The translations under genes were made by a program, and so were the position numbers. A DNA stretch of 64,000 nt from contig FIZI01000016.1 of the NCBI GenBank assembly GCA_900016865.1, positions 45,304 to 109,303 of the forward strand. Direction: 5' to 3'. The notes under the pieces are model-generated. The model saw nothing but the letters and a program-made list of their open reading frames with translations. It did no database searches and was not told the DNA's origin. Position 1 is the first letter of the stretch. The number at the start of each line of letters is the position of its first letter. Below are positions 3,033-23,280 of this stretch, one piece after another. This DNA comes from an uncultured Clostridia bacterium. Its GTDB lineage: Bacteria > Bacillota > DTU014.

Positions 3033-4136
3033 ATGGCGAAAGTGGTACTCGACCACGTCACTAAACGTTTTGGCAATGTGATCGCGGTCAACGACGCATG
3101 CCTGGAGATCAAAGACAAGGAGTTCCTAGTGCTGGTCGGACCATCGGGGTGCGGAAAGTCTACGACACTCCGAATGGTGGCGGGATTGGAGGAGATCACC
3201 GAGGGTAACATCTATATTGGGGATACCTTGGTCAACGACATCCCGCCCAAGGATAGAGACATAGCGATGGTGTTCCAGAACTATGCTCTGTATCCTCACA
3301 TGGACGTCTATAACAACATGGCGTTTGGACTCAAGCTTCGGAAGTACCCGAAGGCGGAGATTGACAGACTGGTCAAGCAGGCAGCTCAGATCTTGGGTAT
3401 AGAAAACTTGCTGGACAGAAAGCCAAAGGCTCTTTCGGGTGGTCAGAGACAGAGAGTTGCTCTCGGCCGAGCTATCGTGCGTGAGCCAAAGGTCTTCCTT
3501 ATGGACGAGCCGCTGTCCAACCTCGACGCCAAGCTGAGGGTCGTGATGAGAGCCGAGCTCTCCAAGCTGCACATGAGGTTGCAGACGACAGTTATCTATG
3601 TTACTCACGACCAGACAGAGGCTATGACCATGGGCGATCGCATTGTCGTCATGAAGGACGGGTTGATCCAGCAGGTCGGCGCACCTCTGGAGATTTACGA
3701 CAATCCTGACAACATGTTCGTAGCCGGATTTATTGGTACACCTCCGATGAACTTCATAGACGCTGTGCTGGTCAAGGAGGGTGACGACCTCTATGTCAAG
3801 GGTCCCGGCTTCAAGCTGAAGGTACCATCAGGACGTTTCAAGGACCTTGGCCCATACATCGACAAGGAAGTTGTCTTCGGCATTAGGCCTGAGGACATCA
3901 TTGACGCAGAGTTCTATCCTGGCGAGGTCACAGATGACAACTCTATCGTTGCAATGGTGGATGTCACTGAGCCGCTCGGATCTGAGGTTCTCGTCTACTT
4001 GTCGTTTGGCGAGTCGATGGTCACAGCCAAACTAGATCCTCATACCAGAGCCGAGGATGGCGAAAACCTCAAGGTGGTATTCGCCATGCACAAGATGCAT
4101 CTGTTCGACAAAGACACCGAGATGGTGATCAGGTAG
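3033..4136 (+). CDS. ABC sugar-transporter ATP-binding protein (MsmX/MalK/UgpC family), orphan (no adjacent permeases)
   Basis: Walker A GPSGCGKST, ABC signature LSGGQRQR, Walker B FLMDEPLSNLD and H-loop VTHDQ are all present. A C-terminal MalK-like regulatory/TOBE region gives a 367-aa product typical of MalK/MsmX. Confidence 0.9.
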   Translation: MAKVVLDHVTKRFGNVIAVNDACLEIKDKEFLVLVGPSGCGKSTTLRMVAGLEEITEGNIYIGDTLVNDIPPKDRDIAMVFQNYALYPHMDVYNNMAFGLKLRKYPKAEIDRLVKQAAQILGIENLLDRKPKALSGGQRQRVALGRAIVREPKVFLMDEPLSNLDAKLRVVMRAELSKLHMRLQTTVIYVTHDQTEAMTMGDRIVVMKDGLIQQVGAPLEIYDNPDNMFVAGFIGTPPMNFIDAVLVKEGDDLYVKGPGFKLKVPSGRFKDLGPYIDKEVVFGIRPEDIIDAEFYPGEVTDDNSIVAMVDVTEPLGSEVLVYLSFGESMVTAKLDPHTRAEDGENLKVVFAMHKMHLFDKDTEMVIR

Positions 4137-4280
4137 GTCACACTCGCGTGTGAATAGATAGGCTGGCGGGGCTGCCCGCGTGGGTGCCTGTCACAGACCT
4201 TGTGGGTTGATTAAGGGATGGTACTCGGGATCTGGGTACCATCCTTTTTCGATAAGTGAAGCAAGAGGGGAGAACGCACT

Positions 4281-5354
4281 ATGCAGTTCAATTTGGATGA
4301 CATAGCTGCAATGGAACAGCTTGACCCAGGGGGAATGACCGGTCTAATCGTCGGCTTGCCCGATCAGTTGAAAGAGGCCCACGAGATAGGCCTAAAGGCG
4401 GAAGTCCCCGAGGATTACTCCAATGTCAAGAACGTCGTGATCTCAGGGCTCGGGGGATCTGCGATTGGCGGTGACCTGCTGAGGTCGTTGGCCACGGGCA
4501 AGTCGAGAGTTCCTATTTCGGTCAACCGTGACTACGACATACCGGCGTACGTAGGGCCTGATACTCTCTTTGTAGCTTCTAGCTACTCCGGCAACACAGA
4601 GGAGACACTCGCGGCATTTGACAGTGCAGTAGCTGCCAATGCCCGCGTGCTTTGCATCTCGTCTGGGGGTGAACTCACCAAGCGAGCGACGGATCAAGGG
4701 ATTCCTGTAATCAAGATCCCCGGCGGCCCTGCTCCGCGTGCGGCTTTAGGCTATTCTTTCCTTCCACTCTTGATTGTGATGCGAAGGCTGGGCTTGGTAG
4801 AGGATGACATCGGCGATGTTGATGAGATGTTGTCAATCATGGTTGGACTGAGGGAGGTCTTGGCTCCTCAGTCACCTGAGAGCGTCAACCAAGCAAAGCA
4901 GTTGGCTCGCAGAATCCACGGCAAGCTCCCCATTATCTATGGCGCCGAAGGTTACCGAGCTGTGGTTGCCCAGCGCTGGAAGGGCCAGGTCAATGAGAAC
5001 AGCAAGGCCCCTGCCTACTGGAACGTGTACCCGGAGCTCAACCACAATGAGATAGTCGGATGGAAGGCTTATCCCGAGCTCTTGTCTCGCATGTACGTGA
5101 TCAACCTGAGGGACAAGACTGAGTCCCCCAAGATGCAGAGGCGCATCGAAGTCACTTCTGAAATCATCAAGAAGCTGGCTGCCGGTGTAGAGGACGTCTG
5201 GGCTGTTGGCAAGTCCGATCTTGCCAAGCTCTTCTCTCTGGTGTATATAGGAGACTTCGTCTCGCTCTACCTAGCTTTCCTCAACAACGAAGATCCGCTT
5301 CCAGTTGAATCTATCGCATACTTAAAGAGCCAATTGGCACAGGTAGAGGAATAA
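4281..5354 (+). CDS. Bifunctional phosphoglucose/phosphomannose isomerase (SIS-domain PGI/PMI family)
   Basis: A 357-aa product with a SIS-type fold signature (ISGLGGSAIGGDLL ... SYSGNTEETL). The length and layout resemble the archaeal/bacterial bifunctional PGI/PMI family, and the neighbouring genes are sugar-phosphate enzymes. Confidence 0.7.
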   Translation: MQFNLDDIAAMEQLDPGGMTGLIVGLPDQLKEAHEIGLKAEVPEDYSNVKNVVISGLGGSAIGGDLLRSLATGKSRVPISVNRDYDIPAYVGPDTLFVASSYSGNTEETLAAFDSAVAANARVLCISSGGELTKRATDQGIPVIKIPGGPAPRAALGYSFLPLLIVMRRLGLVEDDIGDVDEMLSIMVGLREVLAPQSPESVNQAKQLARRIHGKLPIIYGAEGYRAVVAQRWKGQVNENSKAPAYWNVYPELNHNEIVGWKAYPELLSRMYVINLRDKTESPKMQRRIEVTSEIIKKLAAGVEDVWAVGKSDLAKLFSLVYIGDFVSLYLAFLNNEDPLPVESIAYLKSQLAQVEE

Positions 5355-5369
5355 GGAGGGAGATGGCGG

Positions 5370-6320
5370 TTGCGGGCTTGCTACATTGGAGTTGACTTGG
5401 GAGGCACGAAGATAGCTACCGGAGCCGGAGATCAGACCGGAGCAATTCTGGTCCGGGATGTCCGGCCGACTGAGGCTCACAAGGGCACAGAAGCCACGAT
5501 CAACAACATCAAGGCAAGTATTCGCCAAGTGCTTGAGCAGCTCGGGCCTGATCTGCAGGTCTGCGGGATTGGAGTTGGCAGCCCAGGGCCCTTGAGCGTC
5601 AGTGAGGGTGTCGTGTACAGCGCACCCAATCTAGGCTGGGACCATGTACCCATCCGCCAGATCCTCAAGGATGAGTTCGGGGTCAGGGTCGAGGTAGGCA
5701 ATGACGCAAATGTTGCAGGCCTGGCCGAATGGCGATTTGGTGCGGGAGAACAATGCCGCAACATGATCTATGTGACTGTCAGCACAGGGATCGGAGGGGG
5801 AATCATTGTCGATGGGAAGCTCCTCCTCGGGTCGCACGATTTCGCAGGAGAGATCGGGCATATGATCATGGTGGAGAATGGCCCTCTGTGCGGGTGCGGA
5901 AGGCGAGGCTGCTTTGAAACGCTCGCCTCAGGCACTGCGATTGCCAGGCGAGCGCAAGAAGCGGTGCGCCTCGGAGTGCCAACTGCTATGTTGGAACTAG
6001 TAGACGGCGACATCGACCGGATCGACTCCGCTGTTGTTGCGCGGGCTGATGCAGCCGGCGACGCTCTCGCGTCTGAGATCCTCGACGAGGCTATCAGATA
6101 TCTGAGCATTGGCCTGGGCAACCTGGTAACAATATTCAACCCCGATCGCATAGTGATCGGCGGAGGGGTCTCGAACATAGGCGACAGGCTGTTTAGACCT
6201 CTTCGTCGGATGATTCTGTCAAGAGCTATGAGGGAATCAGTTAGCCGCGTTGAGATACACAGAGCCAAGCTGGGTTCAGATGTCGGAGTGGTTGGTGCTA
6301 TGTGTCTGGTCATGGACTAA
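5370..6320 (+). CDS. ROK-family glucokinase
   Basis: An ATP-binding N-terminus GVDLGGTKIA is followed by the ROK zinc motif CGCGRRGCFET. The size (316 aa) is typical for GlcK. Confidence 0.85.
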   Translation: MRACYIGVDLGGTKIATGAGDQTGAILVRDVRPTEAHKGTEATINNIKASIRQVLEQLGPDLQVCGIGVGSPGPLSVSEGVVYSAPNLGWDHVPIRQILKDEFGVRVEVGNDANVAGLAEWRFGAGEQCRNMIYVTVSTGIGGGIIVDGKLLLGSHDFAGEIGHMIMVENGPLCGCGRRGCFETLASGTAIARRAQEAVRLGVPTAMLELVDGDIDRIDSAVVARADAAGDALASEILDEAIRYLSIGLGNLVTIFNPDRIVIGGGVSNIGDRLFRPLRRMILSRAMRESVSRVEIHRAKLGSDVGVVGAMCLVMD

Positions 6321-6452
6321 GCCCTCCCGGCTGAGCCGGGCAAGTCAGAGGCTCCAAAGCATATGGCAGAGGGGGAGAGAATACTATTCAGATGATAGTG
6401 CTCTCTCCCTTTTCTTTTTGACGCCCGCAACTGATCGCTGATCCGAGGAGCG

Positions 6453-7394
6453 TTGCGAAGGAGGATGCCAATGCACCGATTGGCTCTGATTGCCCTGGTA
6501 GCGGTGACAGTCGGACTGTTCGTGCAACTTGTCGCCTGCAGTAGCTCAGGCGCGGATGCAAGCCGCATGTTGTTCAGCATGGAGGACCCTCCCGATGATG
6601 ACTACGGGCCGGGGACCTATATCTACCCAACACATCACGCATTTAGCCCACACCGGGGGATCTTGGACTTGAGGCGTTTTGAGGTATTTGACACTCACGA
6701 GACCGTCGATTTCTACTTCTCCTTTGCAGTGGTCACAAATCCATGGCACGCCCCTGAAGGGTTTAGCCACCAGTTAATCGACCTCTATATCGATTGCATC
6801 GAGCGCGCAGGCCGCGACCGCCCATTGCGTGATGGGCCTAGGGTCCGGTTTCCTTCGGAATCAGGTTGGGACTACCTCATCAGAGTCGTTGCATGGGATG
6901 GGTGCCGACTGTTTCGTGCGGATGACCCCTCAAACGCCAAAGGGACAAAGGACGGAGTCTCAGCAGTTCTCCTGCAGGACGGCAAGACTATCAAGGTGTC
7001 TGTCAGGCGCGATCATTTCGAGGTGGAGCCTAGCCCAAGATGGCAGTACTTCTGCCTCATAGGTTCGCAGGACGTCTTTGGAGAGGATGAATACAGGCCT
7101 GTCATGAGGGAGGCGGGGCTGTGGCACTTCGGGGGTGCAGAAGACGAGAGATTGGCTCCGTATGTGATAGACTTGCTTGCACCCGCCAAAGGGCATCGGA
7201 GCCAGCAATCACAGCTTCTCTCATACGATAGTGGCCGAGGTACTCATGCGCTGCTCTATCCGGTTGGCGGGCAGTCGTTTAGCGTAGCGACTCTGGTCCT
7301 GTCAGTTGTCATCGCCGTGCTCCTCTTGGGTGTCGGGATAGGGCTTGCAGTCATAAGGCGAATGGCAAACCGGACTCCGCCAAACGGACGATAG
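6453..7394 (+). CDS. Membrane-anchored lipoprotein with possible glucodextranase-like carbohydrate-binding domain
   Basis: The lipobox LVAC follows the signal sequence, and there is a C-terminal TM helix (VATLVLSVVIAVLLLGVGIGLAVI). The motif PPDDDYGPGTYIYPT resembles glucodextranase-like C-terminal (S-layer-associated) domains as recalled from memory, without database confirmation. Confidence 0.45.
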   Translation: MRRRMPMHRLALIALVAVTVGLFVQLVACSSSGADASRMLFSMEDPPDDDYGPGTYIYPTHHAFSPHRGILDLRRFEVFDTHETVDFYFSFAVVTNPWHAPEGFSHQLIDLYIDCIERAGRDRPLRDGPRVRFPSESGWDYLIRVVAWDGCRLFRADDPSNAKGTKDGVSAVLLQDGKTIKVSVRRDHFEVEPSPRWQYFCLIGSQDVFGEDEYRPVMREAGLWHFGGAEDERLAPYVIDLLAPAKGHRSQQSQLLSYDSGRGTHALLYPVGGQSFSVATLVLSVVIAVLLLGVGIGLAVIRRMANRTPPNGR

Positions 7395-7507
7395 CTACGT
7401 CAATGTGTAGCCCGTGCGGTTCTTGGGTACACTAACTGCGAGATGCGCACTGCCCGTGCGATTTGTCGTTGTTGAAGGGCATTACCGCACACGACTGGGG
7501 CGAACAC

Positions 7508-8863
7508 ATGAAGATCGTAATGCTCACATGGGAGTATCCTCCCAGGTCGGTTGGGGGGATCGCACCGCACGCACAGCAGTTGTCCAGGGCACTAGTTCAG
7601 CGAGGCCACGATGTGCAAGTCGTGACTCATCTCGAAGGCGACGCCAAGAGATTGGAAGACGACAAAGGCGTGACCGTGCATAGGGCTCCAATGGCTAGTC
7701 CCGCTCCCTTGGACTTCCTCACTTGGGTCATGCAGATGAACCTAAACCTCATTGAGACTGTCGTTAAGATCACGCGCAGGTCAGGGCCGCCTGACATCAT
7801 CCACGCGCACGATTGGCTGGTGGCGTACGCCGCCAAGTCGCTCAAGCATTCCTTAACAGTCCCTCTGGTTGCCACGATCCATGCCACTGAGGCAGGGCGT
7901 AACTCCGGATTGCACAATGCTCTCCAGAGATACATCGGAGATGTAGAATGGTGGTTGGGTTTTGAGGCCTGGAGGGTGATCTGTTGCAGCACATATATGC
8001 TGGATGAGGTCATGAGAGTATTCCAGCTACCTATGGACAAGATCGATGTCATTCCCAACGGAGTCAATGCCGGGGAGTTTGCCTCAGATGCGGACATCGC
8101 CGAGTTTCGGCGAAGGTACGCGGCAGACGACGAAAAGCTGGTTTTCTTCGTGGGCAGGCTCGTGCACGAGAAGGGTGTCCATGTCCTGATACAGGCTATG
8201 CCAAAGGTGCTGGCTCACTATGGAAAAGCCAAACTTGTCGTCTCGGGTAAAGGGCCGGCAATGGACTACCTCAAGTCTCTCGCATCGCAGCTTGGTGTCT
8301 GGGACCGAGTATACTTCACCGGATATATCGATGACGATACTCGCAACAAGCTGTACAAGGCCGCTGATCTGGCGGTCGTGCCGAGCTTGTACGAGCCGTT
8401 TGGCATTACGGCCTTGGAAGCCATGGCCGCCCGCTGTCCGGTCGCAGTCAGCGACGTGGGCGGCCTGGATTCCACTGTTCAAATCGGAGTCAACGGGTAC
8501 AAATTCTACGCAGGCAATCCCAACTCCCTTGCTGATACCATCCTACACGTCTTCTTTTGCCCGGACGATGCCGAGCGCGTGAGCAGGCGAGCATATGAAG
8601 AAGTGATCACGAAATACTCCTGGGGACGAATCGCCACGCTAACAGAGCAGACATACAGCAGAGTACTTCATGAGTTCAAAAACAGCGACTGGGCGCTGAC
8701 ATCTACGGAGTTGGTGACACGTGAAAGCAGTTATCATGGCAGGCGGAAAAGGCACGAGATTGAGGCCCTTGACATGCGACCGCCCCAAACCGATGGTCCC
8801 GATCTTGGGCAAGCCTATCATGGAATATATCCTAAGACTCCTTCTGAAGCACGGCATTCGTGA
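7508..8863 (+). CDS. GT4-family glycosyltransferase (retaining; NDP-sugar dependent)
   Basis: The start MKIVMLTWEYPP and the EPFG...E motif (YEPFGITALEAMAARCPV) are typical of GT4 GT-B enzymes. The ORF extends about 60 aa beyond the usual GT4 C-terminus and overlaps the next gene by 143 nt. An upstream in-frame ATG at 7463 is a less likely start. Confidence 0.85.
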   Translation: MKIVMLTWEYPPRSVGGIAPHAQQLSRALVQRGHDVQVVTHLEGDAKRLEDDKGVTVHRAPMASPAPLDFLTWVMQMNLNLIETVVKITRRSGPPDIIHAHDWLVAYAAKSLKHSLTVPLVATIHATEAGRNSGLHNALQRYIGDVEWWLGFEAWRVICCSTYMLDEVMRVFQLPMDKIDVIPNGVNAGEFASDADIAEFRRRYAADDEKLVFFVGRLVHEKGVHVLIQAMPKVLAHYGKAKLVVSGKGPAMDYLKSLASQLGVWDRVYFTGYIDDDTRNKLYKAADLAVVPSLYEPFGITALEAMAARCPVAVSDVGGLDSTVQIGVNGYKFYAGNPNSLADTILHVFFCPDDAERVSRRAYEEVITKYSWGRIATLTEQTYSRVLHEFKNSDWALTSTELVTRESSYHGRRKRHEIEALDMRPPQTDGPDLGQAYHGIYPKTPSEARHS

Positions 8864-11252
8864 CGTACTGGTGACTCTTCAATACAAGCCTGAAATGATA
8901 ATGGAGTACTTCGGAAACGGCAGTGCTCTCGGCATGCACATCCGCTATTTCATTGAAGACCAGCCTCTCGGCACGGCAGGCAGTGTCAAGAGCGTGGAGG
9001 GATATCTAAATGAGCCGTTTCTGGTCGTAAGCGGCGACGCCATGACTGACATCGACTTGACGTCTGCCCTTGACTACCATCGCAGCAAAGGGTCAACTGC
9101 TACCATTGTCTTGACTCGTGTACCTACGCCGCTGGAATACGGTGTAGTAATCATTGATGAGACCGGCCGAATCCGGCGGTTCCTAGAGAAGCCCAGCTGG
9201 AGTGAAGTCTTCAGCGATATGGTGAACACCGGCATATACGTCCTCCAGCCGGAGGTCTTGAGCTGGATTCCCGCAGGGCAGCCGTTTGATTTCAGCAAGG
9301 ACCTATTCCCCAAGCTCCTTGAGTCAGGAGAGCCGATGTACGGATATGAGGCAAAGGGGTATTGGTGCGACGTAGGCAACATAGAGGCGTACGCAGCGAC
9401 ACACATCGACATTCTCGCAGGCAAGCTGGATGTTCCGATCCCGGGCAAGCAGATTCGCACAGGAGTCTGGGTCGAGGATGGAACTCAGATACACCCTACA
9501 GCCGTCCTAAACGCTCCCGCTTACATAGGCAGCCATTGCAAGATCGGTGCTAACGCAGAGATAGGTGCATACTCGGTGCTCGGCGAGCAGATCCTCGTCG
9601 GTGCGAACAGCTCGCTCAAAAGGTCGGTGATCTGGGACAATGTCTACTTGGGCAACGAGGTAGAGATACGGGGAGCCATCCTCTGCGACAGAGTTAGCGT
9701 CAAGGACAGGTGTGCGGTATTTGAAGGCGCCGTGATCGGCCCTGATTCAACAATAGGCCAGAGGGTGATCGTCAAGCCCGGTGTCAAGATCTGGCCTGAC
9801 AAGTTCGTCAGCCCGGGCACGACATTGAGTTCGAGCGTCATATGGGGTTCGACCGCGTTTAGCAGGCTCTTTTGCACTCTGGGAGTGTCCGGTGCCTTCA
9901 ACGTGGAGATCACCTCAGAATTTGCAGCCAAACTCGGGGCGGCGTATGGTTCTCGTTTGAAGGCCGAAGCCCCGGTTATCGTCGCGTCAGACGGGGCGAA
10001 GGCGTCGGACGTGGTGAAGCAGGCCATTTCTGCAGGCATCCTCTCCTCCGGGCGAGACGTGAGGGACATCAAGACCGCGACTATGCCTCTGACTCGCTTC
10101 GCAGTAGCGAAGCTGGGCTCTGTTGGAGGAGTGTACGTATGTCGCTCACCCGGCGATCAGAACGGCATACTCATGCGCTTCATGGACGAGCAGGCACTTG
10201 ATATAGATAGCTCCACACAGAGGGGTATCGAGCGCGACTTCTTTAGCGGTGACTTCTCGAGAGCCCCTGCTTCTGCTTGTGGCAGCATCACAACTGTCCG
10301 AGACATTGGAACTCATTATCTCAAAGAGCTCTTGGCTACGGTCGATCGCGAGGCTGTTAGACGAAGCGGGTTCAAGGCCGTGCTCCAGGTAAACCGCTTG
10401 ACAACATCGCCGTTGGTCCAAAGGCTGATGAGTGAACTCGGTGTTGACGCGGTCATCCTCGATGAGGCCCCTGAGTTCGGCGACTCGTCCGGTGTAGAGA
10501 CCGACGGAGATCGGGTGCTGGAGGGCCTTGTGAGGATCTCGCAGCAGGTGGTGTCATCCGGGGCGGATATAGGCGCTCTGGTGGATTCGAGCGGCGAGCA
10601 CGTCATGCTTGTCGACGAGCTCGGGTCGTCTCTATCGAGCGAGAGCTTCCTCGCACTCCTGTCCCTGATGACACTCAGACAGCGCACAGGCGCCAGAGTA
10701 GTTGCGCCAGTAACTGCCCCAAGAGTCATTGACCGATTGGCCGAGAGGTTCAACGGCGCGGTAGTTCGGACGAAAGCCAATGTGCGGTCAATGATGGAGA
10801 TGATGGTCAGGCAAAAGGTCTCAATCGGAGGTTCTGACCTGCCAAGCTTCCAGCCAGCTTTTGACGCAGTGGCCGCGCTCGCTAGGCTTCTCGAGTTTAT
10901 GGCCAAGGAGGGCGTGTCCCTCTCCAGTATAATGACCCGAGTGCCGCCCATTCACATGGACCGGGCAACCGTAGCATGCCCATGGGACAGGAAGGGGCAA
11001 GTAATGCGCACTCTCATAGAGACCGAGCCAAAGGACAAGATGGAACTCCTCGACGGCATAAAGGTCTACCACGGTTCGGGATGGGCGTTGGTGCTGCCGG
11101 ACTCGGATGAACCCGTATTTCACGTGTACTGCGAAGCCGCGTCAATGGAAAGCGCGATCGAGCTCAAGGAATTGTACGTCTCGAAGATCAACAAGATCAG
11201 CAGCGCTGACGATCCTATGGGCCGGTCTGGAGACAGGACACATGAGCTCTAG
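8721..11252 (+). CDS. Fused sugar-1-phosphate nucleotidyltransferase (with left-handed beta-helix) / phosphomannomutase-phosphoglucomutase
   Basis: A GTG start gives the NTP-transferase N-terminus MKAVIMAGGKGTRLRPLT, followed by hexapeptide-repeat LbH regions. The C-terminal roughly 450 aa have a phosphohexomutase layout. 843 aa. Confidence 0.85.
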   Translation: MKAVIMAGGKGTRLRPLTCDRPKPMVPILGKPIMEYILRLLLKHGIRDVLVTLQYKPEMIMEYFGNGSALGMHIRYFIEDQPLGTAGSVKSVEGYLNEPFLVVSGDAMTDIDLTSALDYHRSKGSTATIVLTRVPTPLEYGVVIIDETGRIRRFLEKPSWSEVFSDMVNTGIYVLQPEVLSWIPAGQPFDFSKDLFPKLLESGEPMYGYEAKGYWCDVGNIEAYAATHIDILAGKLDVPIPGKQIRTGVWVEDGTQIHPTAVLNAPAYIGSHCKIGANAEIGAYSVLGEQILVGANSSLKRSVIWDNVYLGNEVEIRGAILCDRVSVKDRCAVFEGAVIGPDSTIGQRVIVKPGVKIWPDKFVSPGTTLSSSVIWGSTAFSRLFCTLGVSGAFNVEITSEFAAKLGAAYGSRLKAEAPVIVASDGAKASDVVKQAISAGILSSGRDVRDIKTATMPLTRFAVAKLGSVGGVYVCRSPGDQNGILMRFMDEQALDIDSSTQRGIERDFFSGDFSRAPASACGSITTVRDIGTHYLKELLATVDREAVRRSGFKAVLQVNRLTTSPLVQRLMSELGVDAVILDEAPEFGDSSGVETDGDRVLEGLVRISQQVVSSGADIGALVDSSGEHVMLVDELGSSLSSESFLALLSLMTLRQRTGARVVAPVTAPRVIDRLAERFNGAVVRTKANVRSMMEMMVRQKVSIGGSDLPSFQPAFDAVAALARLLEFMAKEGVSLSSIMTRVPPIHMDRATVACPWDRKGQVMRTLIETEPKDKMELLDGIKVYHGSGWALVLPDSDEPVFHVYCEAASMESAIELKELYVSKINKISSADDPMGRSGDRTHEL

Positions 11253-11293
11253 CGAACACCGGAGCTAGTGAACCCGATAGAGCTCTAGTGGCG

Positions 11294-12895
11294 TTAGCTG
11301 ACCATGTGTGACGCATAGATGGAGTAGTCGATTTCTGGGAATATGTTGTCCTTCCACTCAAGGTGTGACAGGTAGTCCGGGTCAATGCGGTCCTGCGTTA
11401 TCTGGTCAAACAGCTCCGCAAATCGTCCAACATGGTTCTTGGTTCTCCTTATGGCGTAGTCCACCATGGTCCCGGTCTTCATGATGAACGCCCAGTCGCT
11501 GCTTTGAGCGAGCAGGAGTTCACGGGCTGCCTGGTTGAGGGCGCGTCGAAGTATGCCTTCAGCCTTGGGGTACCTGTTTGCGAGTTCAACCATTTGCCGA
11601 GAGGCTCGGTGCAAGTGTCGGTAGATCCAATCGTTGGTTTCGTTGAGCCATACCTCGCAGTAGCCTTTGAACCCCCAGCTCGACATAGTCGGTGTCGACA
11701 CCTGGTTGTGAGAGTACGACGTGAGGTAATCCGACGGAGTGACAAGGCGGTAAATGTCCTGTTCGTAAGCTGACTTGCGGATCAAGAAATCCAGCCATTC
11801 CGGCCCCTCAAACCACCAGTGCCCAAACAGCTCTGCATCGTACGGCGCAACGACAATGGGTTGCCGATCTAGCAGCGATGCGAGAAACTCCAACTGACGT
11901 TCTCTGTTGAACATGAAGTTGCCCGCATGCAGTGCAGCTTTGTTCAGAGCAGCTTGACGGTTGTATATGGCCTTCTCGTCGGTCTTGCCGGTTATTCTGT
12001 GATACTTTATCCCAGTGTGCCCTCGTATGCCGTTTCGCAGATAGGGGCAGATGTAGTCGTAATCCAGGTCAAATCCTATGTCTCTGTAAAAGTCCCTGTA
12101 GTCGAAGTCTCCCGGGTAGCCTTCGTCTGCACTCCAGACCTGCTTTGATGATTCGGGATCGCGGCCAAAGACTGCTACCCCTGATTGACAGTATATGGGC
12201 GCGTAGACTCCGTACTTCGGCCTGGGGCTCGCGAAGAGAACTCCATGCGTGTCTGCAAACGTATACCTAATCCCATGGCGGGCAAGCGCGGAGTCAACTC
12301 CCGGGTAGAACCCACATTCAGGCAACCAAAACCCAAAGGGGCTGAAGCCGAAATGACGCCTGAAGTGGCTGACGCCTACGGATATCTGAGCTTCGACGGA
12401 TTGGGCTACTTCATCCATGAGCGGCAGAAAACCGTGAGTAGCAGCGCTCGTAATAAGCTCGACTGCACCCACATCGTGCAGGCGTTTGAACCCTGAGAGG
12501 AGATTCCGGTTGTACTTGTTCTCAAAAACCTCCCGGACATGATAGGCCCTCTCTCTGTACATCAAGGCAAGCGAATGGAGCTCTGGGTTAAGAACCGTCC
12601 GCTTGACCTCTTTCTCACATAGATCGATGAGACGATTGACATAATCGACATATCTTTGTTGTAGGAGCGGATCAGTGAGCATCTCCATTAGGGGAGGTGA
12701 CAGTGATACCGTTATCCTGAACTCAACGCCGTCTTCCACTAATCCGTTGAACACATCTAGCAGCGGAATGTACGTTTCAGTGATCGCTTCGTTGAGCCAG
12801 TTGCCTTCCAGGAAGCCATCTGTGTCCGGGTGCTTTACATATGGAAGGTGGGCGTGCAACACGATTGCCACATAGCCCTTAGGTGATTTCTTCAT
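11294..12895 (-). CDS. GH57-family glycoside hydrolase (alpha-glucan branching/amylase-like)
   Basis: The N-terminus VAIVLHAHLPYV is the GH57 hallmark, and the 533-aa length matches GH57 branching-enzyme-like proteins. It is translationally coupled to the upstream DUF4912 gene by a 17-nt overlap. Confidence 0.85.
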   Translation of the reverse strand: MKKSPKGYVAIVLHAHLPYVKHPDTDGFLEGNWLNEAITETYIPLLDVFNGLVEDGVEFRITVSLSPPLMEMLTDPLLQQRYVDYVNRLIDLCEKEVKRTVLNPELHSLALMYRERAYHVREVFENKYNRNLLSGFKRLHDVGAVELITSAATHGFLPLMDEVAQSVEAQISVGVSHFRRHFGFSPFGFWLPECGFYPGVDSALARHGIRYTFADTHGVLFASPRPKYGVYAPIYCQSGVAVFGRDPESSKQVWSADEGYPGDFDYRDFYRDIGFDLDYDYICPYLRNGIRGHTGIKYHRITGKTDEKAIYNRQAALNKAALHAGNFMFNRERQLEFLASLLDRQPIVVAPYDAELFGHWWFEGPEWLDFLIRKSAYEQDIYRLVTPSDYLTSYSHNQVSTPTMSSWGFKGYCEVWLNETNDWIYRHLHRASRQMVELANRYPKAEGILRRALNQAARELLLAQSSDWAFIMKTGTMVDYAIRRTKNHVGRFAELFDQITQDRIDPDYLSHLEWKDNIFPEIDYSIYASHMVS

Positions 12896-13802
12896 CGCAG
12901 CGACCTCGTTCCATCGTCCATTTGACGCCGTGTACGTGCGTGCTCTTGCCCTCGAGCGAACTCAAAGCCCCCCACGGGCCAGATGGACTAAACCCGCGGA
13001 CAAGGGCTTCTGAACCCATTAACAGCCTGCGACGGGCTAACCGCGACACGAACCGCTGTTGAAATTCTGGTGAGCTCGGCCCAAAGCCCGCTGACATCCA
13101 ATAAAGCTTGTCAAATCCGCTGAGGACCATCCATTCCTCGTCAGTGACGTCTGAGATCCGGTCTCTCGGAGTTGACACCAGGCCGGACCTGGCGAGAACG
13201 AGCTCGCGGCCAGTCGGAGTTATGATTGCTATGTCTGCGCAGTATGTTCGGTTCGCAGCCGGGACATTGATGTACCAGCTGGTTGCTTCGTCGCCTATTC
13301 CTATGTCCATCCTGCTTCGTATATCGCCAAGAACACCGTCTGTGACATCGTAGACCCGAAGGAGCTTTATGCTCTTGGACCATGCATCACGGCCGTAATC
13401 CCTGCATACGCGTTGCTTGTCCTGCTCCGATACGCTCCAGTAAGCATAGATCCAATAGGGATCGCGAACCATCAGAGTCAGAATGGTCTCGTTGTACCTC
13501 TGAGGAATACGGTATTCCGGAGGGTCCTCCGGAATCGGCGACGTGATTTCAGTGCGGCCCCTAAACTCAGCCGGCGTCGGACTGCTTGGGCTTTGGCGGT
13601 CGAGTTCTGGAGACTTGTGCAAGTACATGCTGGATTGAGAATCACCCACTCGAGTGGAGGAGGGATCGTCATCAGCGCCTATACCTGCGCCTATGTGGTT
13701 GTGCCGAGCCCTGCCGGCATTGCCAGCTGAGTCCTGCATTGGGCGGCGATATCCTCCTCGTGTAAAGTGGTACTGGAAGCCGATCTCGTGACTTGGGATC
13801 AA
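12879..13802 (-). CDS. DUF4912-family protein (GH57-associated, function unknown)
   Basis: The conserved core LTLMVRDPYWIYAYWSVSEQ is characteristic of DUF4912. The first roughly 100 aa are low-complexity and the true start may be internal. The gene lies upstream of, and overlaps, the GH57 gene. Confidence 0.65.
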   Translation of the reverse strand: MIPSHEIGFQYHFTRGGYRRPMQDSAGNAGRARHNHIGAGIGADDDPSSTRVGDSQSSMYLHKSPELDRQSPSSPTPAEFRGRTEITSPIPEDPPEYRIPQRYNETILTLMVRDPYWIYAYWSVSEQDKQRVCRDYGRDAWSKSIKLLRVYDVTDGVLGDIRSRMDIGIGDEATSWYINVPAANRTYCADIAIITPTGRELVLARSGLVSTPRDRISDVTDEEWMVLSGFDKLYWMSAGFGPSSPEFQQRFVSRLARRRLLMGSEALVRGFSPSGPWGALSSLEGKSTHVHGVKWTMERGRCDEEIT

Positions 13803-14018
13803 TCTGTGAGAGCCATCTAAGCGACGACTGCGTCCATTGCTTAATATCGCCGTTCCTGTATGAGTTTATACTGTAAAACGTCCGGCTGTGGAACACTGCC
13901 GAATATCCGGGAGAGAGCTGGAGATAATAAGCAGTAAGGCGCGTTCGAATGCAGAGATGCATTCATGTCTTGACGCGTCAATCTCTTGACCCGGCAGAAC
14001 GCGCTTGGGAGCAACACG

Positions 14019-15677
14019 ATGACGCTAGGGTATTTCTGTTTGGTCCTTCACAGTCATATCCCTTACACAAAGAAAGCTGGCAAATGGCCATTCGGAGAGG
14101 AATGGCTCTACGAAGCAATGGCCGAGACATACATACCTATCCTAGATATACTTGCAGGACTCAACGAGTCGGCCCGGGTGTGTGTAAGCATATCTCCAGT
14201 GCTCATGGAGCAGCTGAGAGATCCGTACATGAATGAGGGTTTCGAGGAATACCTAGGGCAACGTCTGGCTGCAGCATCTGCGGATGTGTCGAGGTTTGCA
14301 GCGACCTCAGACTACCGACTCAAGAAGCTGGCAGAGGGATATGTGGACTACTACGAAAAGGTCAAAGACGCGTATATCCGGGTATGGAATCGCGATCTCT
14401 TGGGGGCCTTTAAGAGTCTCCAGGACCAGGGACGCATTGAAGTCATTACGAGTGCAGCAACTCATGCATATCTGCCGCTCATGGGCGACGAGGCTTCCGT
14501 CAGGCTGCAGCTGCTTGTTGGACGCGAGACCTACAAGGCTTACATGGGCAGAGAGCCTGCAGGCATTTGGCTACCTGAATGCGGTTACAGGCCCAGAGGC
14601 GGAAAAGACCCGCATGGCGGGACTCTGCGGCCTGGAATCGAGCAACACCTAAAGGAGTTGGGAATACACTACTTCCTTGTCGATTCCCATGCGATAGAGG
14701 GCGGTGCGCCGCTTGGCATCTATAGTTCTAGGTTGGCTCACTCATTCCAACATGCCGATGCGGAGAACTCCGCTCATACAGGAAGGAGCACCTTTCGCCC
14801 ATACTACGTAGAGGATTCAGGTGTAGCTGTATTTGGCCGCGACCGGAGGACCGGCTCGCAGGTGTGGTCCAGCGAATGGGGGTATCCCGGAGACGGGAGC
14901 TATCGAGAGTTCCACAAGAGAGACGAGAAGTCAGGTTTTAGATATTGGCGCGTGACAAACAGATTGACCGGGCTTGACAGAAAGGAGCTGTACGACCCGG
15001 ATCAAGCAATGGCCCGCGTCTTTGAGCAATCCACTCACTTTGTCTGCCTGGTGAGAAACCTTCTATCAAGCTTTGCCGCTTCTTCCAAGACTCCCGGTAT
15101 CCTCGTTGCTCCCTATGATATTGAGTTCTTTGGGCACTGGTGGCATGAAGGCCCGCAGTGGCTGCGCCAGGTGTTGACCAAGCTCGCTGAGATTCCGGAA
15201 GTAGAAGTGAGCACTCCAAGCGCTTATCTGTCAAAATACCCGCCAACCGAGGCAGTAAGGCTGAGGGAGAGCTCATGGGGGGTAGGTGGCAAGCACTATG
15301 CCTGGATGAACGAAGCGACCGCTTCGTTGTGGCAGGAGTTGTTTGCTGCAGAGTCTCGGCTAGCCTGTGTGATTGAACAGTGTCGAAACTCATCGGCGTT
15401 CGATACACGAATGGCTAGGCTGATAAACCAAGGTATCAGGGAGCTCATGCTTATGCAGAGCAGTGACTGGCCGTTCCTAATCACGACCGGTCAGGCGGCC
15501 GACTACGCCAGGTCGCGCTTTGCAGAACACAAGGACAGACTCGAGAAGGTCTTGACGGCCGCGGAGGCCCTAGCAGGTGGGTGCTGCGATCAGCGAGTAG
15601 ATGAACTAGAGGAGATCGAGCAGATCGACTCCTTGTTTAGCGGCCTGGAACTGTCCAGTCTGGTCAACTGGAGCTAG
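14019..15677 (+). CDS. GH57-family glycoside hydrolase (second copy, divergent from the DUF4912-GH57 operon)
   Basis: N-terminus MTLGYFCLVLHSHIPY (GH57 hallmark). The chosen start is the internal ATG with a weak upstream GGGAG, whereas the ORF track starts at 13986. About 553 aa. Confidence 0.85.
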   Translation: MTLGYFCLVLHSHIPYTKKAGKWPFGEEWLYEAMAETYIPILDILAGLNESARVCVSISPVLMEQLRDPYMNEGFEEYLGQRLAAASADVSRFAATSDYRLKKLAEGYVDYYEKVKDAYIRVWNRDLLGAFKSLQDQGRIEVITSAATHAYLPLMGDEASVRLQLLVGRETYKAYMGREPAGIWLPECGYRPRGGKDPHGGTLRPGIEQHLKELGIHYFLVDSHAIEGGAPLGIYSSRLAHSFQHADAENSAHTGRSTFRPYYVEDSGVAVFGRDRRTGSQVWSSEWGYPGDGSYREFHKRDEKSGFRYWRVTNRLTGLDRKELYDPDQAMARVFEQSTHFVCLVRNLLSSFAASSKTPGILVAPYDIEFFGHWWHEGPQWLRQVLTKLAEIPEVEVSTPSAYLSKYPPTEAVRLRESSWGVGGKHYAWMNEATASLWQELFAAESRLACVIEQCRNSSAFDTRMARLINQGIRELMLMQSSDWPFLITTGQAADYARSRFAEHKDRLEKVLTAAEALAGGCCDQRVDELEEIEQIDSLFSGLELSSLVNWS

Positions 15678-15775: not shown

Positions 15776-16633
15776 ATGCGAGTAGTGGTCATCACCGGAC
15801 TGTCTGGAGCAGGCAAGAGCGAGGCGATCAAGTCACTTGAGGATATTGGATATTTTTGCATAGATAACCTTCCTCCGGAACTCATTCGCAAGCTGGCTGA
15901 GCTTTTTTCACAGTCGGATCGCACAGTGAATAGGATAGCCCTGGTGGTTGATGTTCGTGCCGGCGCGTCTCTCTCAGACGCTCTTGCAGACTTAGAGGAA
16001 CTCCGCAGGATAGCGGCTGACTTCACAATCTTGTTTCTCGACGCGTCGGATGAGACATTGCTGAGACGATTTAAGGAGACGAGACGCAGGCATCCTTTGG
16101 GTTCTGAGGGCGGTATTCTCGAGGGTATTCGGCGTGAGCGGCAGCTCCTGGCGGCCATTAAGTCAGCCTCGGACCAAGTGATAGATACATCGGGTATTAC
16201 ATCTCGCCAGCTGCGCAACAGACTTGTCGAGCTTTTCAGCGAGGACGCCAGATTTGATACGTTCTCCATTACAGTCGTCTCCTTTGGGTTTAAGTATGGC
16301 ATACCTCTGGACGCAGATCTCGTGTTTGATTGTAGGTTTTTGCCAAACCCATATTGGGTTGAATCGCTTAAACCAATGCAAGGGACAGACCCTGAAGTGC
16401 GGGAATACGTTCTGAAGTGGCCTGTAACAAAAGAGTACATCGAACGTCTCAAAGACCTGTTGGAGTTTCTCGTTCCGAACTACATCGAAGAGGGTAGGAG
16501 CCACCTGATCATCGGAATCGGATGTACGGGAGGGCGTCACAGGTCTGTAGTCCTTGCTGAGGAGATAGTATCTCACTTGACACACCTTGGGTACTCGGCA
16601 GGCTTGGAGCACAGGGACATGAGCGCTAACTGA
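15776..16633 (+). CDS. rapZ: RNase adapter protein RapZ (YvcJ)
   Basis: A P-loop N-terminus MRVVVITGLSGAGKS, followed by CIDNLPPEL and a conserved C-terminal domain. It sits immediately upstream of yvcK, as in Firmicutes. Confidence 0.9.
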   Translation: MRVVVITGLSGAGKSEAIKSLEDIGYFCIDNLPPELIRKLAELFSQSDRTVNRIALVVDVRAGASLSDALADLEELRRIAADFTILFLDASDETLLRRFKETRRRHPLGSEGGILEGIRRERQLLAAIKSASDQVIDTSGITSRQLRNRLVELFSEDARFDTFSITVVSFGFKYGIPLDADLVFDCRFLPNPYWVESLKPMQGTDPEVREYVLKWPVTKEYIERLKDLLEFLVPNYIEEGRSHLIIGIGCTGGRHRSVVLAEEIVSHLTHLGYSAGLEHRDMSAN

Positions 16634-16652
16634 TTGAGAGGGATCACGTCAA

Positions 16653-18008
16653 TTGGCATTCCTTAAGTGGCTATATCCGGGGATGGGTTTGAAACGGTGG
16701 TTCTTCTTGGCGGTCCTTGGAGGCCTTATGGCCGGGCTCGGACTTGACTGCCTGTTCGGTGAAAGCATCTTGTCATTTGCTGGCCGAGCGCTAGACCGAG
16801 TCGGTGTCCAGTTTACCACGGACACGGAGGTCAGGTGTTCAGTGGCGGCAGTGCTGTTGGTCACGGGGATTCTTTGCATCGCGTTTGGCCTGGCGATGGC
16901 TATCAAACGCGTTGTCTTGGCTGTGAGGCCTGGATATGGGGGCCGCATTGCAGATGCAGTGCTCAATGACAGCACACTCAGGAGAGGGCCTTCGGTAGTC
17001 GTGATTGGAGGCGGGACCGGACTCTCTACCTTACTGCGGGGCCTTAAGCAATACACCAGCAACATTACAGCTATCGTCACTGTCACTGACGACGGAGGAA
17101 GCTCGGGCCGCCTGAGAAATGAACTCGGAATCCTTCCTCCCGGCGACATACGCAATTGCCTCGTTGCACTTGCCGACACGGAGCCGCTGATGGAGCAGCT
17201 CTTGCAGTATCGGTTTAGGTGCGGTTCGGGACTGAACGGCCACAGTTTTGGCAACTTGTTGATCGCTGCATTGACTGAGCTTTCAGGCGATTTTGAGTTG
17301 GCAGTGAGGGAGTCTAGCAAGGTCTTGGCGGTCCGGGGCCGAGTGCTCCCCTCTACACTGAGTGATGTAACTATTTGCGCGGAGCTGATCGACGGATCCA
17401 TAGTTCGGGGCGAAACGACCCTTTCAGCACAAGACAAGCCGATACGCCGAGTCTTCATCGAGCCGCAGGACTGCACTCCTCTGGCTGATGCAGTAGAGGC
17501 TATAGGAGAGGCCGATGCAATCGTTCTGGGGCCCGGCAGCTTGTACACTAGTGTGATTCCCAATCTGTTGGTCAGGCAACTGACCGCAGAGATCGCCGCA
17601 TCTCGAGCTCCTAAGATCTACGTGTGCAACGTAATGACTCAAAAGGGTGAAACAGACAACTACGGCGTCTTCGATCATGTCAAGGCTATTCTAGACCATT
17701 CGGTTGACGGCCTATTAGACTATTGCGTAGTCAACGACGGCCGAGTCTCTGAGCCCCTCCTCAAGCGGTACAGCGAGATGTCTCAGCACGTAGTCAGAGA
17801 TGATTCGAAGCGGGTCGCCGCACTTGGAATCCGTGTCGTGAAGGCAAACGTGGTCAGTGAGACTGAAGTAGTGCGGCATGATCCCATAAAGCTGGCGTCT
17901 GTCCTTATGCAGCTCATTGCAGAGATCAGAGAGGCGCAAGAGCCGAAGCCCACTGTTCGCAGGTTCGTTTGCCGCATGTTCAGGCGGAGAGAGTACATCC
18001 GGTCGTAG
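16653..18008 (+). CDS. yvcK: YvcK/CofD-like gluconeogenesis factor with unusual N-terminal two-TM extension
   Basis: The core VVVIGGGTGLSTLLRGLK ... GPGSLYTSVIPNLLV matches UPF0052/YvcK. The first roughly 100 aa contain two hydrophobic helices not found in canonical 320-aa YvcK. 451 aa in total. Confidence 0.8.
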   Translation: MAFLKWLYPGMGLKRWFFLAVLGGLMAGLGLDCLFGESILSFAGRALDRVGVQFTTDTEVRCSVAAVLLVTGILCIAFGLAMAIKRVVLAVRPGYGGRIADAVLNDSTLRRGPSVVVIGGGTGLSTLLRGLKQYTSNITAIVTVTDDGGSSGRLRNELGILPPGDIRNCLVALADTEPLMEQLLQYRFRCGSGLNGHSFGNLLIAALTELSGDFELAVRESSKVLAVRGRVLPSTLSDVTICAELIDGSIVRGETTLSAQDKPIRRVFIEPQDCTPLADAVEAIGEADAIVLGPGSLYTSVIPNLLVRQLTAEIAASRAPKIYVCNVMTQKGETDNYGVFDHVKAILDHSVDGLLDYCVVNDGRVSEPLLKRYSEMSQHVVRDDSKRVAALGIRVVKANVVSETEVVRHDPIKLASVLMQLIAEIREAQEPKPTVRRFVCRMFRRREYIRS

Positions 18009-18044
18009 GGTCTCGATTGGAACGTAAGTCCGTTCGTGCCTATC

Positions 18045-18620
18045 CTATCCAAAGACTAACGTGCACACAATGATTGATGCCAAGAAACCGACTATATCGG
18101 CTATCAGGCCTGTCCAGACAGCATGTCTTACTCTGCGTATCCCGACTGCGCCGAAGTACACGGTGACAATGTAAAAGGTCGTGTCTGCACTTCCTTGGAT
18201 GGTGGACGCCATCCGTCCGATCATTGAATCAGGCCCATGGGTGGACAGCAGGTCTGCGAGAATGCCCAGCGAGCCGCTGCCTGACAATGGCCGCACTATG
18301 AGAAGCGGCACCACTTCGACGGGCACTCCTATGACATTCAGGACCGGAGACAGGACTGAGGCAGCCATATCGAGTGCGCCCGAAGCCCGCAGGATCCCAA
18401 GAGCCAGGAACATCGCGAGTAGAAACGGCAGGATCCTCAAGGCCACCGAAACGCCGTCCTTTGCTCCTTTTACGAACTCTTCGTAGACCGGCACCCTTTT
18501 GTAAGCACCCCAGACGAGAATTGCGATGATCAACAGTGGTACAGCAAGCGCCGAGGCGCTTTGGATGGTGCCGACCAGTCTCTCAAGCAGTACTGACTTT
18601 GCCAGCATTGGCACAGTCAC
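18045..18620 (-). CDS. spmB: Spore maturation protein B-like (nucleoside-recognition Gate-domain membrane protein)
   Basis: A 191-aa polytopic membrane protein, paired with and overlapping the spmA-like gene (4-nt overlap). The pair resembles spmA/spmB architecture. Confidence 0.7.
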   Translation of the reverse strand: MTVPMLAKSVLLERLVGTIQSASALAVPLLIIAILVWGAYKRVPVYEEFVKGAKDGVSVALRILPFLLAMFLALGILRASGALDMAASVLSPVLNVIGVPVEVVPLLIVRPLSGSGSLGILADLLSTHGPDSMIGRMASTIQGSADTTFYIVTVYFGAVGIRRVRHAVWTGLIADIVGFLASIIVCTLVFG

Positions 18621-21180: not shown

Positions 21181-21221
21181 TCAGAGCGCTATCAATCTGA
21201 TTCTCACTGGAGGGATCTAAG

Positions 21222-23249: not shown

Positions 23250-23280
23250 TGACGGCCGGATTGGCGAGTAGGACTGTGAG

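Follow-up and report, generated by a model that had tools for sequence, protein, structure and literature searches.

The 64-kb stretch of contig FIZI01000016.1 analysed here (the window, meaning the whole of that stretch) comes from an uncultured Clostridia bacterium. Between positions 3033 and 15677 it carries nine genes, all present at or near the coordinates given in an earlier note on this DNA; gene calls are taken from the open reading frame listing together with Pfam and NCBIfam profile searches. The part of this block from about 7.5 to 15.7 kb combines two glycoside hydrolase family 57 (GH57) genes, a glycosyltransferase family 4 (GT4) gene, a nucleotidyltransferase fused to a mutase-like region, and a gene of the DUF4912 family. 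The main result concerns DUF4912, which forms with one of the GH57 genes, that of the type of Thermotoga maritima AmyC, a two-gene pair kept across many bacterial phyla. The features are as follows, the second GH57, of the Thermococcus/Pyrococcus/Thermus type, being called TK-type throughout.

7508-8863, plus strand: GT4 glycosyltransferase (Glyco_transf_4 and Glycos_transf_1 domains)
8721-11252, plus strand: 843-residue fusion of an NTP_transferase domain, a left-handed beta-helix (LbH) and a region like phosphoglucomutase/phosphomannomutase (PGM/PMM), by Pfam
8721-9842, plus strand: N-terminal half of the fusion, nucleotidyltransferase and left-handed beta-helix (NTP_transferase, 5.2e-59; LbH_EIF2B)
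9843-11252, plus strand: C-terminal half of the fusion, phosphohexomutase-like, homologous to the PGM/PMM structures 9du5 and 1wqa
11294-12895, minus strand: AmyC-type GH57 with a BE_C domain, 533 residues (PDB 2b5d, 1.6e-163)
12879-13739, minus strand: DUF4912 protein, 286 residues (PF16258, 115.4 bits against a gathering cut-off of 29.4)
13740-14018, no strand: intergenic region from which the DUF4912-AmyC operon and the TK-type GH57 gene diverge, as read from the coordinates
14019-15677, plus strand: TK-type GH57 with a BE_C domain, 552 residues from the ATG used by gene calls on metagenome-assembled genomes (MAGs) (PDB 5wu7, 1.8e-138)

The DUF4912 gene starts at the ATG that gives 286 residues and the MQDSAG onset found in its closest homologues. 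Its stop codon (12879-12881) lies inside the AmyC-type gene, which begins at the ATG at 12895-12893, and this 17-nt overlap makes translational coupling of the two genes probable. Such coupling had been proposed in the earlier note; the overlap is real, and the pairing proves far stronger than was visible from the sequence alone. The 3' end of the GT4 gene runs 143 nt into the fusion gene (8721-8863) when the latter is read from its true GTG start, without which the GGKGTRLRPLT loop would be missing; the gene calls on MAGs shorten the fusion to 810 or 827 residues and lose this loop. Among 21 contigs read with the same 533-residue GH57 protein, gene order is identical in the six places shown, so the locus is not an assembly artefact. 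These contigs are metagenomic or MAG sequences labelled "Bacillota bacterium", several of them from anaerobic digesters. The divergent region at 13740-14018 presumably holds promoters; a scan for sigma-70-type promoters and terminators, that region included, gave nothing above shuffled expectation. Rfam finds no riboswitch or other RNA element near the glucan genes, its only matches in the window being five tRNA genes (28259-28476, 29552-29625, 45667-45739 and 54335-54421).

The extent of the pairing was surveyed with an alignment of 26 DUF4912 proteins, used to fetch 80 loci, one per GTDB species, in which neighbours were scored by tblastn with the window proteins. An AmyC-type GH57 gene, at 57-77% identity (57-65% between distant phyla), lies directly downstream of DUF4912 on the same strand, with a gap of -4 to +210 nt, in 75 of the 80 loci. 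Two of the others have an insert of 2.1-3.6 kb inside the pair, and in three the contig ends right after DUF4912. Where the gap can be estimated it is 30 nt or less in 44 of 73 loci. These loci belong to Bacillota, Omnitrophota, Planctomycetia, Margulisiibacteriota/Saganbacteria, Armatimonadota, Poribacteria and Firestonebacteria.

The same adjacency is seen when the choice is made from the other side. AmyC-type proteins picked only by GH57 similarity and taxon name (n = 8) have a DUF4912 gene (Pfam PF16258) counted directly upstream in eight of eight cases. Carriers include Candidatus Brocadia sinica, a Betaproteobacteria MAG, a Nitrospiraceae MAG, Petrotoga olearia, a Thermotogaceae contig and Kosmotoga pacifica, in which DUF4912 overlaps the AmyC-type gene by 8 nt. 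In two further contigs the AmyC-type protein shares 99% identity with T. maritima AmyC; the JGI one of these has PF16258 upstream, and the second is included in the count of eight with an upstream product that is cut by the contig end and in which PF16258 was not searched. DUF4912 forms that bear a Rho_N domain are also followed by GH57 with BE_C (2/2). Around all these pairs the remaining genes are unrelated, and the conserved unit is therefore the DUF4912-GH57 two-gene pair. No DUF4912 is found beside those TK-type GH57 genes that neighbour fusion genes in 80 loci picked by fusion similarity (see below). Adjacency of DUF4912 and AmyC-type GH57 is thus near-universal and is kept across many bacterial phyla, at least eight phylum-level groups in all. 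In the open literature searched, two papers mention DUF4912, neither of them in connection with GH57. Papers on AmyC and on the Petrotoga mobilis enzyme do not discuss the upstream gene; the latter analyses 2 kb upstream of the GH57 gene for promoters and leaves the upstream gene unmentioned. The cyanobacterial form of DUF4912 has been treated as a Rho-like protein of unknown role (PMC13613805).

Both GH57 proteins belong to the branching-enzyme subfamily, as their size had suggested, and neither is an amylopullulanase or a 4-alpha-glucanotransferase. The fingerprints of the glycogen branching enzyme (GBE) subfamily, among them HxH[L/I/M]P in conserved sequence region (CSR) I, are defined in PMC9291813. 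CSR I reads HAHLP in 11294-12895 and HSHIP in 14019-15677. The nucleophile Glu of CSR III (WLPEC) and the acid/base Asp of CSR IV (APYD) are kept in both; the motifs, aligned to the catalytic positions of 2b5d, 3n8t and 5wu7, are WLPECGF and APYDAELFGHWW in the AmyC type and WLPECGY and APYDIEFFGHWW in the TK type. BE_C (DUF1957, PF09210) is matched with 144.6 bits in the AmyC type and 72.6 bits in the TK type (cut-off 25). The CSR IV sextet is ELFGHW in the AmyC type and EFFGHW, with Phe for Leu at position 2, in the TK type; variants given for the GBE subfamily are ELF(Y)GHW, and EFFGHW is not listed (PMC9291813). NF041133 and NF041566, which are narrow Thermococcales and Thermus models with cut-offs of 1000 and 920 bits, are missed by both proteins (535 and 485 bits for the TK type, 331 and 322 for the AmyC type).

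The protein of 11294-12895 is 48% identical over its full length to a 99%-identical copy of T. maritima AmyC, and where TK-type enzymes have two extra beta-strands and the flexible loop it is 13 and about 10-21 residues shorter, the differences from its paralogue in the window being 13 and 21. By sequence it is classed as a loop-less AmyC-type GH57 "branching enzyme". It shares length, conserved regions, catalytic Glu and Asp and absence of the loop with T. maritima AmyC (TM1438, PDB 2B5D) and with the loop-less Petrotoga and Kosmotoga "GBE", and the AmyC-type genes of the Thermotoga, Kosmotoga and Petrotoga lineages have DUF4912 directly upstream, as in the window. The enzyme itself is not distinguishable from these; the published AmyC-type enzymes were assayed alone. 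The protein of 14019-15677 aligns end to end with the GBEs of T. kodakarensis (3N8T, 6.6e-138), P. horikoshii (5WU7) and T. thermophilus (1UFA, 3.8e-113; 3P0B). Their catalytic residues, BE_C and flexible loop, which lies between CSR III and CSR IV, are all kept, and a Tyr of the loop aligns with T. kodakarensis Y233. Differences are a loop about 11 residues longer and EFFGHW for ELFGHW. It can be assigned on these features as a Thermococcus/Pyrococcus/Thermus-type GH57 glycogen branching enzyme with a flexible loop and a tip tyrosine. The loop is present in only about 200 of about 2,450 GH57 GBE homologues, and branching rates are 350-550 mU/mg for loop-bearing enzymes against 9-14 mU/mg for the loop-less ones of Petrotoga and Kosmotoga (PMC9291813). 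AmyC, at first reported as an intracellular alpha-amylase, is described as a branching enzyme of high hydrolytic activity (PMC6616209).

Residues 1-330 of the fusion align with the full length of 8x7s (2e-66, 228 bits), named UTP-glucose-1-phosphate uridylyltransferase by its depositors. 8x7s is probably a UDP-glucose pyrophosphorylase of the CugP (non-GalU) type known from cyanobacterial sequences. GDP-mannose pyrophosphorylases in the PDB reach 155-165 bits and GlgC about 78 bits. The GGxGTRLxPLT loop, K23, D106 and EKP156-158 are invariant in 16 fusion-family members. Classical GlgC has the same architecture of NTP_transferase and left-handed beta-helix; the window protein lies far below the cut-off of the GlgC model (TIGR02091, 131.9 bits against 424.9). 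The best NCBIfam model, the mycobacterial GDP-mannose pyrophosphorylase NF052502, is matched with 294 bits, under its cut-off of 440. The N-terminal half is probably a UDP-glucose (NDP-glucose) pyrophosphorylase, to which, compared with 8x7s, the window protein adds a mutase-like domain of 470 residues. The transferase had been considered equally compatible with GDP-mannose, a balance that is not supported, given the margin of 228 over 155-165 bits and the lack of any dedicated mannose-pathway gene among the annotated neighbours.

The C-terminal half is homologous to PGM/PMM over 440 residues (9du5 and 1wqa, 6e-48) and shares the four-domain fold of the alpha-D-phosphohexomutases 9DU5 and 1WQA. 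Pfam places PGM_PMM_II under its cut-off and finds no PGM_PMM_IV match. Unlike those enzymes, the fusion has degenerate loops family-wide, as seen in 24 aligned family members.

Phosphoserine loop: TASHNP, which is CRSPGD in the window; the family has Ser, Cys or a gap at the Ser position, and His and Asn are never present
Metal loop: DGDADR (DxDxDR), which is DSSGEH in the window; only one of 24 members keeps the second Asp, the other 23 having replaced it, and Arg is mostly lost
Sugar loop: GGEE (GEx(S)G), which is deleted in the window and in most family members
Phosphate loop: RASGTEP, which is LPDSDEP in the window and LPD[SPA]xEP across the family

The window's DSSGEH has lost two of the three metal-binding Asp residues, and L792, P793 and D794 belong to a new LPD..EP motif that is invariant in the fusion family. 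With all four catalytic motifs degenerate in 24 of 24 aligned proteins, the C-terminal half is likely a pseudo-mutase. It would probably act as a sugar-phosphate-sensing or scaffolding domain. In five of the 80 loci picked by fusion similarity an intact PGM with all four motifs lies a median of 107 nt downstream of the fusion gene, as would suit a fusion dependent on a separate mutase. The full set of steps from hexose to NDP-hexose that the earlier note saw in the locus is not supported for the mutase step, and the locus is, as judged from these motifs, not a self-sufficient hexose-to-NDP-hexose pathway. The fusion of a Margulisiibacteriota locus (L086) keeps a GE..GG.IFP sugar loop; there a fuller glucan cluster (4188-14831) has on one strand a 725-residue HQP-type GH57, a GalT-like HIT-family transferase, DUF4912, an AmyC-type GH57 and the fusion.

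The GT4 protein, a retaining glycosyltransferase of the GT-B type, matches Glyco_transf_4 in its N-domain and Glycos_transf_1 in its C-domain (1.4e-32 and 1.2e-43), with a further N-terminal match to the catalytic domain of starch synthase, Glyco_transf_5 (5e-20). The motifs GRLxxxKG and ExFGxxxxE appear in its translation as VGRLVHEKG and EPFGITALE. Sucrose-phosphate synthase, suggested by the top PDB match (6kih), was rejected as an assignment, that match being partial and no better than those to GlgA, MshA and GlgM. From gene context and two precedents, GT4 is probably an NDP-glucose:alpha-1,4-glucan glucosyltransferase. One precedent is Rv3032 of Mycobacterium tuberculosis, a GT4 alpha-1,4-glucosyltransferase encoded beside the GH57 gene Rv3031 (PMC2674218; PMC6686919). 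Shared with it are a GT4 of the same two domains beside a branching-type GH57 and elongation without a GT5 GlgA, a likeness of domains and gene context. Unlike the Rv3032 pathway, the window lies in another phylum, has no MGLP methyltransferase or acyltransferase genes, and has the pyrophosphorylase fusion and DUF4912. The other precedent is archaeal: GT4 genes that lie within glycogen clusters, nested among GH57 or GH13 genes in Picrophilus torridus and Methanoculleus bourgensis, have been proposed as candidate glycogen synthases still to be characterised (PMC11046441). The loci described here are bacterial, their partner genes differ, and DUF4912 and the fusion are not reported in the archaeal clusters.

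Beyond the DUF4912-AmyC pair itself, clustering of neighbours in the DUF4912-picked loci yields only two further widely recurring families, the fusion (23/80) and GT4 (16/80). GT4 orthologues always lie directly upstream of the fusion, and those of 16 other species-level genomes, 47-59% identical to the window protein, adjoin GH57, so that GT4 falls in a GH57-linked clade. The fusion and AmyC genes converge in Bacillota, whereas those of Margulisiibacteriota and Saganbacteria run in the same direction; the existence of two gene orders argues for functional linkage over inherited synteny. GH15 recurs in 12 loci, a GalT-like protein in 9 and the long HQP-type GH57 in 7. An independent sample comprised the 80 metagenome loci picked by fusion similarity, where no neighbour family occurs in more than seven loci. 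Annotated recurrent families include the TK-type GH57 GBE (7), GH77 MalQ (6), the intact PGM (5), a starch-synthase-like GT4 directly upstream of the fusion (4), a GalE-like epimerase (4) and a metallophosphoesterase. Other clusters of similar recurrence, outside the Pfam annotation, look from their sequences like housekeeping genes. No dedicated mannose-pathway gene is found among the annotated recurrent neighbours in the 160 loci, and this, with the glucan and UDP-sugar neighbours, favours NDP-glucose over GDP-mannose. A 569-residue PRK-domain protein of the window (52057-53766) is 45% identical to a 554-residue PRK protein of Kosmotoga pacifica (L090, 10553-12217), which lies about 3 kb downstream of the DUF4912-GH57 pair; an S41 peptidase then follows in both (window 55759-56832). 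Membership of the PRK protein in the module was rejected, since it lies 36 kb away in the window and the arrangement is probably unrelated housekeeping synteny.

Four genes lie upstream of GT4 in the window.

3033-4136, plus strand: orphan ABC ATPase of the MalK/UgpC/MsmX type (NF008653, 481 bits against a cut-off of 432; OB_MalK and TOBE_2 domains)
4281-5354, plus strand: bifunctional PGI/PMI (NF006426, 461.3 bits, above the cut-off of 295; bact-PGI_C domain)
5370-6320, plus strand: ROK-family sugar kinase (Pfam ROK, 7.9e-75), starting 15 nt after PGI/PMI
6453-7394, plus strand: protein with a Glucodextran_C domain (PF09985, 9.2e-60), a lipobox (LVAC) and a C-terminal transmembrane helix

No permease or binding-protein gene adjoins the ATPase. 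The ROK kinase, whose translation shows the zinc motif CGCGRRGC, scores 244.8 bits with the glucokinase model TIGR00744, narrowly under the cut-off of 260.35, and is probably a glucokinase. These four genes are found near the module only in contigs of the same species (L001-L006 for the ATPase), and orthologues of PGI/PMI and of the Glucodextran_C protein are absent near the module from the loci of other species in both samples. They are lineage-specific neighbours outside the conserved module. The alpha-glucan theme first read from the locus is thus supported, and the inclusion of PGI/PMI, the kinase, the lipoprotein and the ATPase in it is not. Genes for GT5 glgA, GH13 glgB, glgC, GT35 and GH77 are absent from the 64-kb window by Pfam over the large open reading frames, which bears out the absence of the classical glgA, glgB and glgC noted before.

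The DUF4912 protein was modelled with AlphaFold2 on the 26-sequence alignment, which gives a beta-sandwich at residues 45-160 with pLDDT above 90 and tails of low confidence. Many of the residues at invariant positions are aromatic or charged (R55, D56, P57, W59, W64, R91, Y93, D94, W118, Y119, R147 and S148), and the motifs RDPYW, LRVYDV, WYI and RSN..TP are kept. At E <= 1e-10 the family comprises 5,859 representatives of clusters formed at 50% identity. Some long members have 3-10 tandem copies, several of them behind a PstS-like PBP domain, and the beta-sandwich at the end of two-domain forms has weak similarity to glucodextranase domain B. The FN3-like fold of the model, described below, and the tandem repeats make it probable that DUF4912 is a non-catalytic beta-sandwich partner. 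Four representatives of 1,054-1,541 residues (P0332, P0395, P0439 and P0445) have 2-10 copies by Pfam in a non-GH57 context, three of the four with an N-terminal PstS-like PBP_like_2 domain. The N-termini of family members vary (P0017 of Peptococcaceae; P0015, P0020, P0037, P0058 and others) and can be a transmembrane helix, a Rho_N or SAP-like helix hairpin, or a lysine/arginine-rich disordered tail. The tail of the window protein is acidic and serine-rich.

Taken together, these parts suggest that the region from 7.5 to 15.7 kb is, with somewhat better than even confidence, a cytoplasmic module for synthesis and remodelling of an alpha-glucan of the glycogen type, assembled from non-classical components in the manner of Rv3032 and its GH57. 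The N-terminal half of the fusion would make NDP-glucose, most likely UDP-glucose, from glucose-1-phosphate. The mutase-like half, which lacks the motifs of a working mutase, may serve as its sensing or scaffolding domain. GT4 would extend an alpha-1,4-glucan with that nucleotide sugar, as Rv3032 does in mycobacteria, if context and family resemblance are a guide. The loop-bearing GH57 at 14019-15677 would add alpha-1,6 branches, going by its orthology to assayed enzymes, and the loop-less AmyC-type GH57, consistently encoded with DUF4912, could work jointly with it. DUF4912 most likely binds glucan and/or the AmyC-type enzyme and modulates its activity, and could thereby set the balance of branching, hydrolysis and chain trimming. 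In this species PGI/PMI and the ROK kinase, upstream on the strand of GT4 and the fusion, would plausibly feed in glucose-6-phosphate from outside the conserved module. A bolder proposal, that DUF4912 is an obligate non-catalytic subunit of the loop-less GH57 and provides in trans the glucan-binding or lid function of the flexible loop, is put forward tentatively as a possibility.

Several observations weigh against this assignment of roles. Over its full length GT4 scores 148 bits with its best NCBIfam model, glgA_Coryne (TIGR02149), whose cut-off is 302, and in the PDB it matches sucrose-phosphate synthase, P. abyssi GlgA, MshA and GlgM equivalently, at 1e-22 to 1e-24; it is about equally similar to BshA as to sucrose-phosphate synthase, MshA, GlgM and archaeal GlgA. 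With scores far under the curated cut-offs and equivalent PDB matches, the acceptor rests on gene context. The nucleotide specificity of the fusion, for its part, rests on the depositors' name for one PDB entry and a difference in scores. Near fusion genes chosen by similarity, GT4 occurs in about 5 of 80 loci and GH57 in about 8 of 80, which means that membership of a glucan cluster is not obligatory for the fusion. For AmyC-type enzymes, a role in glucan breakdown and not in synthesis is conceivable. As to DUF4912, Foldseek against the PDB returns FN3/Ig-like domains only, at E of about 1e-4, which is generic; no carbohydrate-binding-module family is found in it by Pfam scan to E 10; and no DUF4912::GH57 fusion protein occurs among the best 150 family representatives.

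The possibility of breakdown extends to the whole locus. The GH57 enzymes and DUF4912 might use imported maltodextrins or degrade glycogen, with GT4 and the fusion making an unrelated glucoconjugate such as glucosyl-diacylglycerol or an envelope glycan and adjacency reflecting a shared sugar regulon. The hydrolytic character of AmyC and its first description as an amylase (PMC6616209) speak for this, as do the GH15 glucoamylase-like and long HQP-type GH57 genes that recur near the pair, the match of GT4 to glycolipid synthases (alpha-monoglucosyl-diacylglycerol synthase, 1.5e-18), the location of most fusion genes away from glucan genes, and the MsmX-type ATPase and surface Glucodextran_C protein in the same block. 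However, the TK-type enzyme keeps the loop and tyrosine tied to dominant branching, the GT4 N-terminus matches a starch-synthase catalytic domain, and the annotated sugar-related neighbours of the fusion and GT4 are GH57 GBE, GH77 and PGM, not lipid or envelope genes. GT4 and the fusion, moreover, stand beside the pair in 16 genomes, and the fusion does so in two gene orders, being co-directional in four Margulisiibacteriota, Saganbacteria and WOR-1 loci; breakdown is accordingly regarded as unlikely, if worth keeping in mind. A related doubt concerns DUF4912, which might be a nucleoid- or RNA-associated protein functionally unrelated to GH57 and merely sharing an ancient operon with it. Rho_N or SAP-like N-termini and basic disordered tails occur in some members, and the cyanobacterial form has been treated as Rho-like, as noted above. 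Set against this, in no fewer than eight phylum-level groups the two genes stay adjacent with every other neighbour changing, they frequently overlap or are separated by a few nt, the window protein and many others have no Rho_N, and 3-10 tandem copies behind a secreted-type PBP domain fit a binding module and not a transcription factor. Such independence of the two genes seems very improbable.

Two other routes would change the product of GT4. If the fusion made GDP-mannose, PMI could supply mannose-6-phosphate and GT4 would be a mannosyltransferase for a glycan or compatible solute. The best NCBIfam model of the transferase half is indeed a mycobacterial mannose-1-phosphate guanylyltransferase, PDB matches of the GMPPB type are present, a bifunctional PGI/PMI lies upstream, and GT4 also matches PimA (about 1e-16). 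The 294 bits obtained fall short of that model's cut-off, though, and the UDP-glucose enzyme is clearly the better structural relative; conservation of the module does not extend to PGI/PMI, the step to mannose-1-phosphate would depend on a mutase-like domain that is degenerate, and the families that recur in the 160 loci are GH57, GH77 and PGM, with no dedicated mannose-pathway gene among those annotated. A mannose product is hence considered highly unlikely. Alternatively, GT4 could behave like the GlgM of actinomycetes and use NDP-glucose and glucose-1-phosphate to form maltose-1-phosphate, which would supply a GlgE-type polymerase whose gene lies elsewhere. Its top NCBIfam match is to the GlgM family (glgA_Coryne), the GlgM structure 6tvp aligns over the full length (6.7e-22), and GT4 "GlgA" proteins are GlgM wherever GlgE co-occurs (PMC11046441). 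The score is half of the family cut-off, however, no GlgE/GH13 gene occurs in the window or among the annotated recurrent neighbour families of the 160 loci, and the partners seen are GH57 enzymes, which leaves little probability for a maltose-1-phosphate route.

Elsewhere in the window, a 447-residue protein at 1431-2774 has weak Porin_4 and SlpA beta-barrel matches, both under cut-off. The genome carries the label Bacillota, and the protein may point to a lineage of this phylum that is diderm (outer-membrane-bearing). The usual RapZ-YvcK-WhiA cluster is split (15776-25822), with YvcK at 16653-18008 and WhiA at 24833-25822. The interval between YvcK and WhiA holds two SpmA/B-like Gate proteins, a DeoR regulator, a 2-hydroxyacid dehydrogenase, a 675-residue AP_endonuc_2::Cgl0159 fusion and an FGGY sugar kinase.

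For glycogen synthesis, the locus adds a bacterial example to the unproven idea that a GT4 enzyme can replace the GT5 GlgA. A pyrophosphorylase fused to a dead mutase would, if the reading is true, be a new allosteric design controlling flux into NDP-glucose, and recognition of the dead domain corrects a "bifunctional" nucleotidyltransferase::mutase annotation that misleads pathway reconstruction in many MAGs. The pairing of DUF4912 with AmyC-type GH57 bears on enzymes that form the majority of their family, whose activity in vitro is low or dominated by hydrolysis and whose physiological role is debated. The near-universal operon suggests that the DUF4912 partner was missing from all published assays of AmyC-type GH57. 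Were DUF4912 in fact an obligate subunit, the weak, hydrolysis-prone activities of AmyC and of the Petrotoga and Kosmotoga enzymes would be artefacts of assaying half of a two-protein enzyme. The pairing also gives a first functional context to DUF4912, a family of nearly 6,000 cluster representatives.

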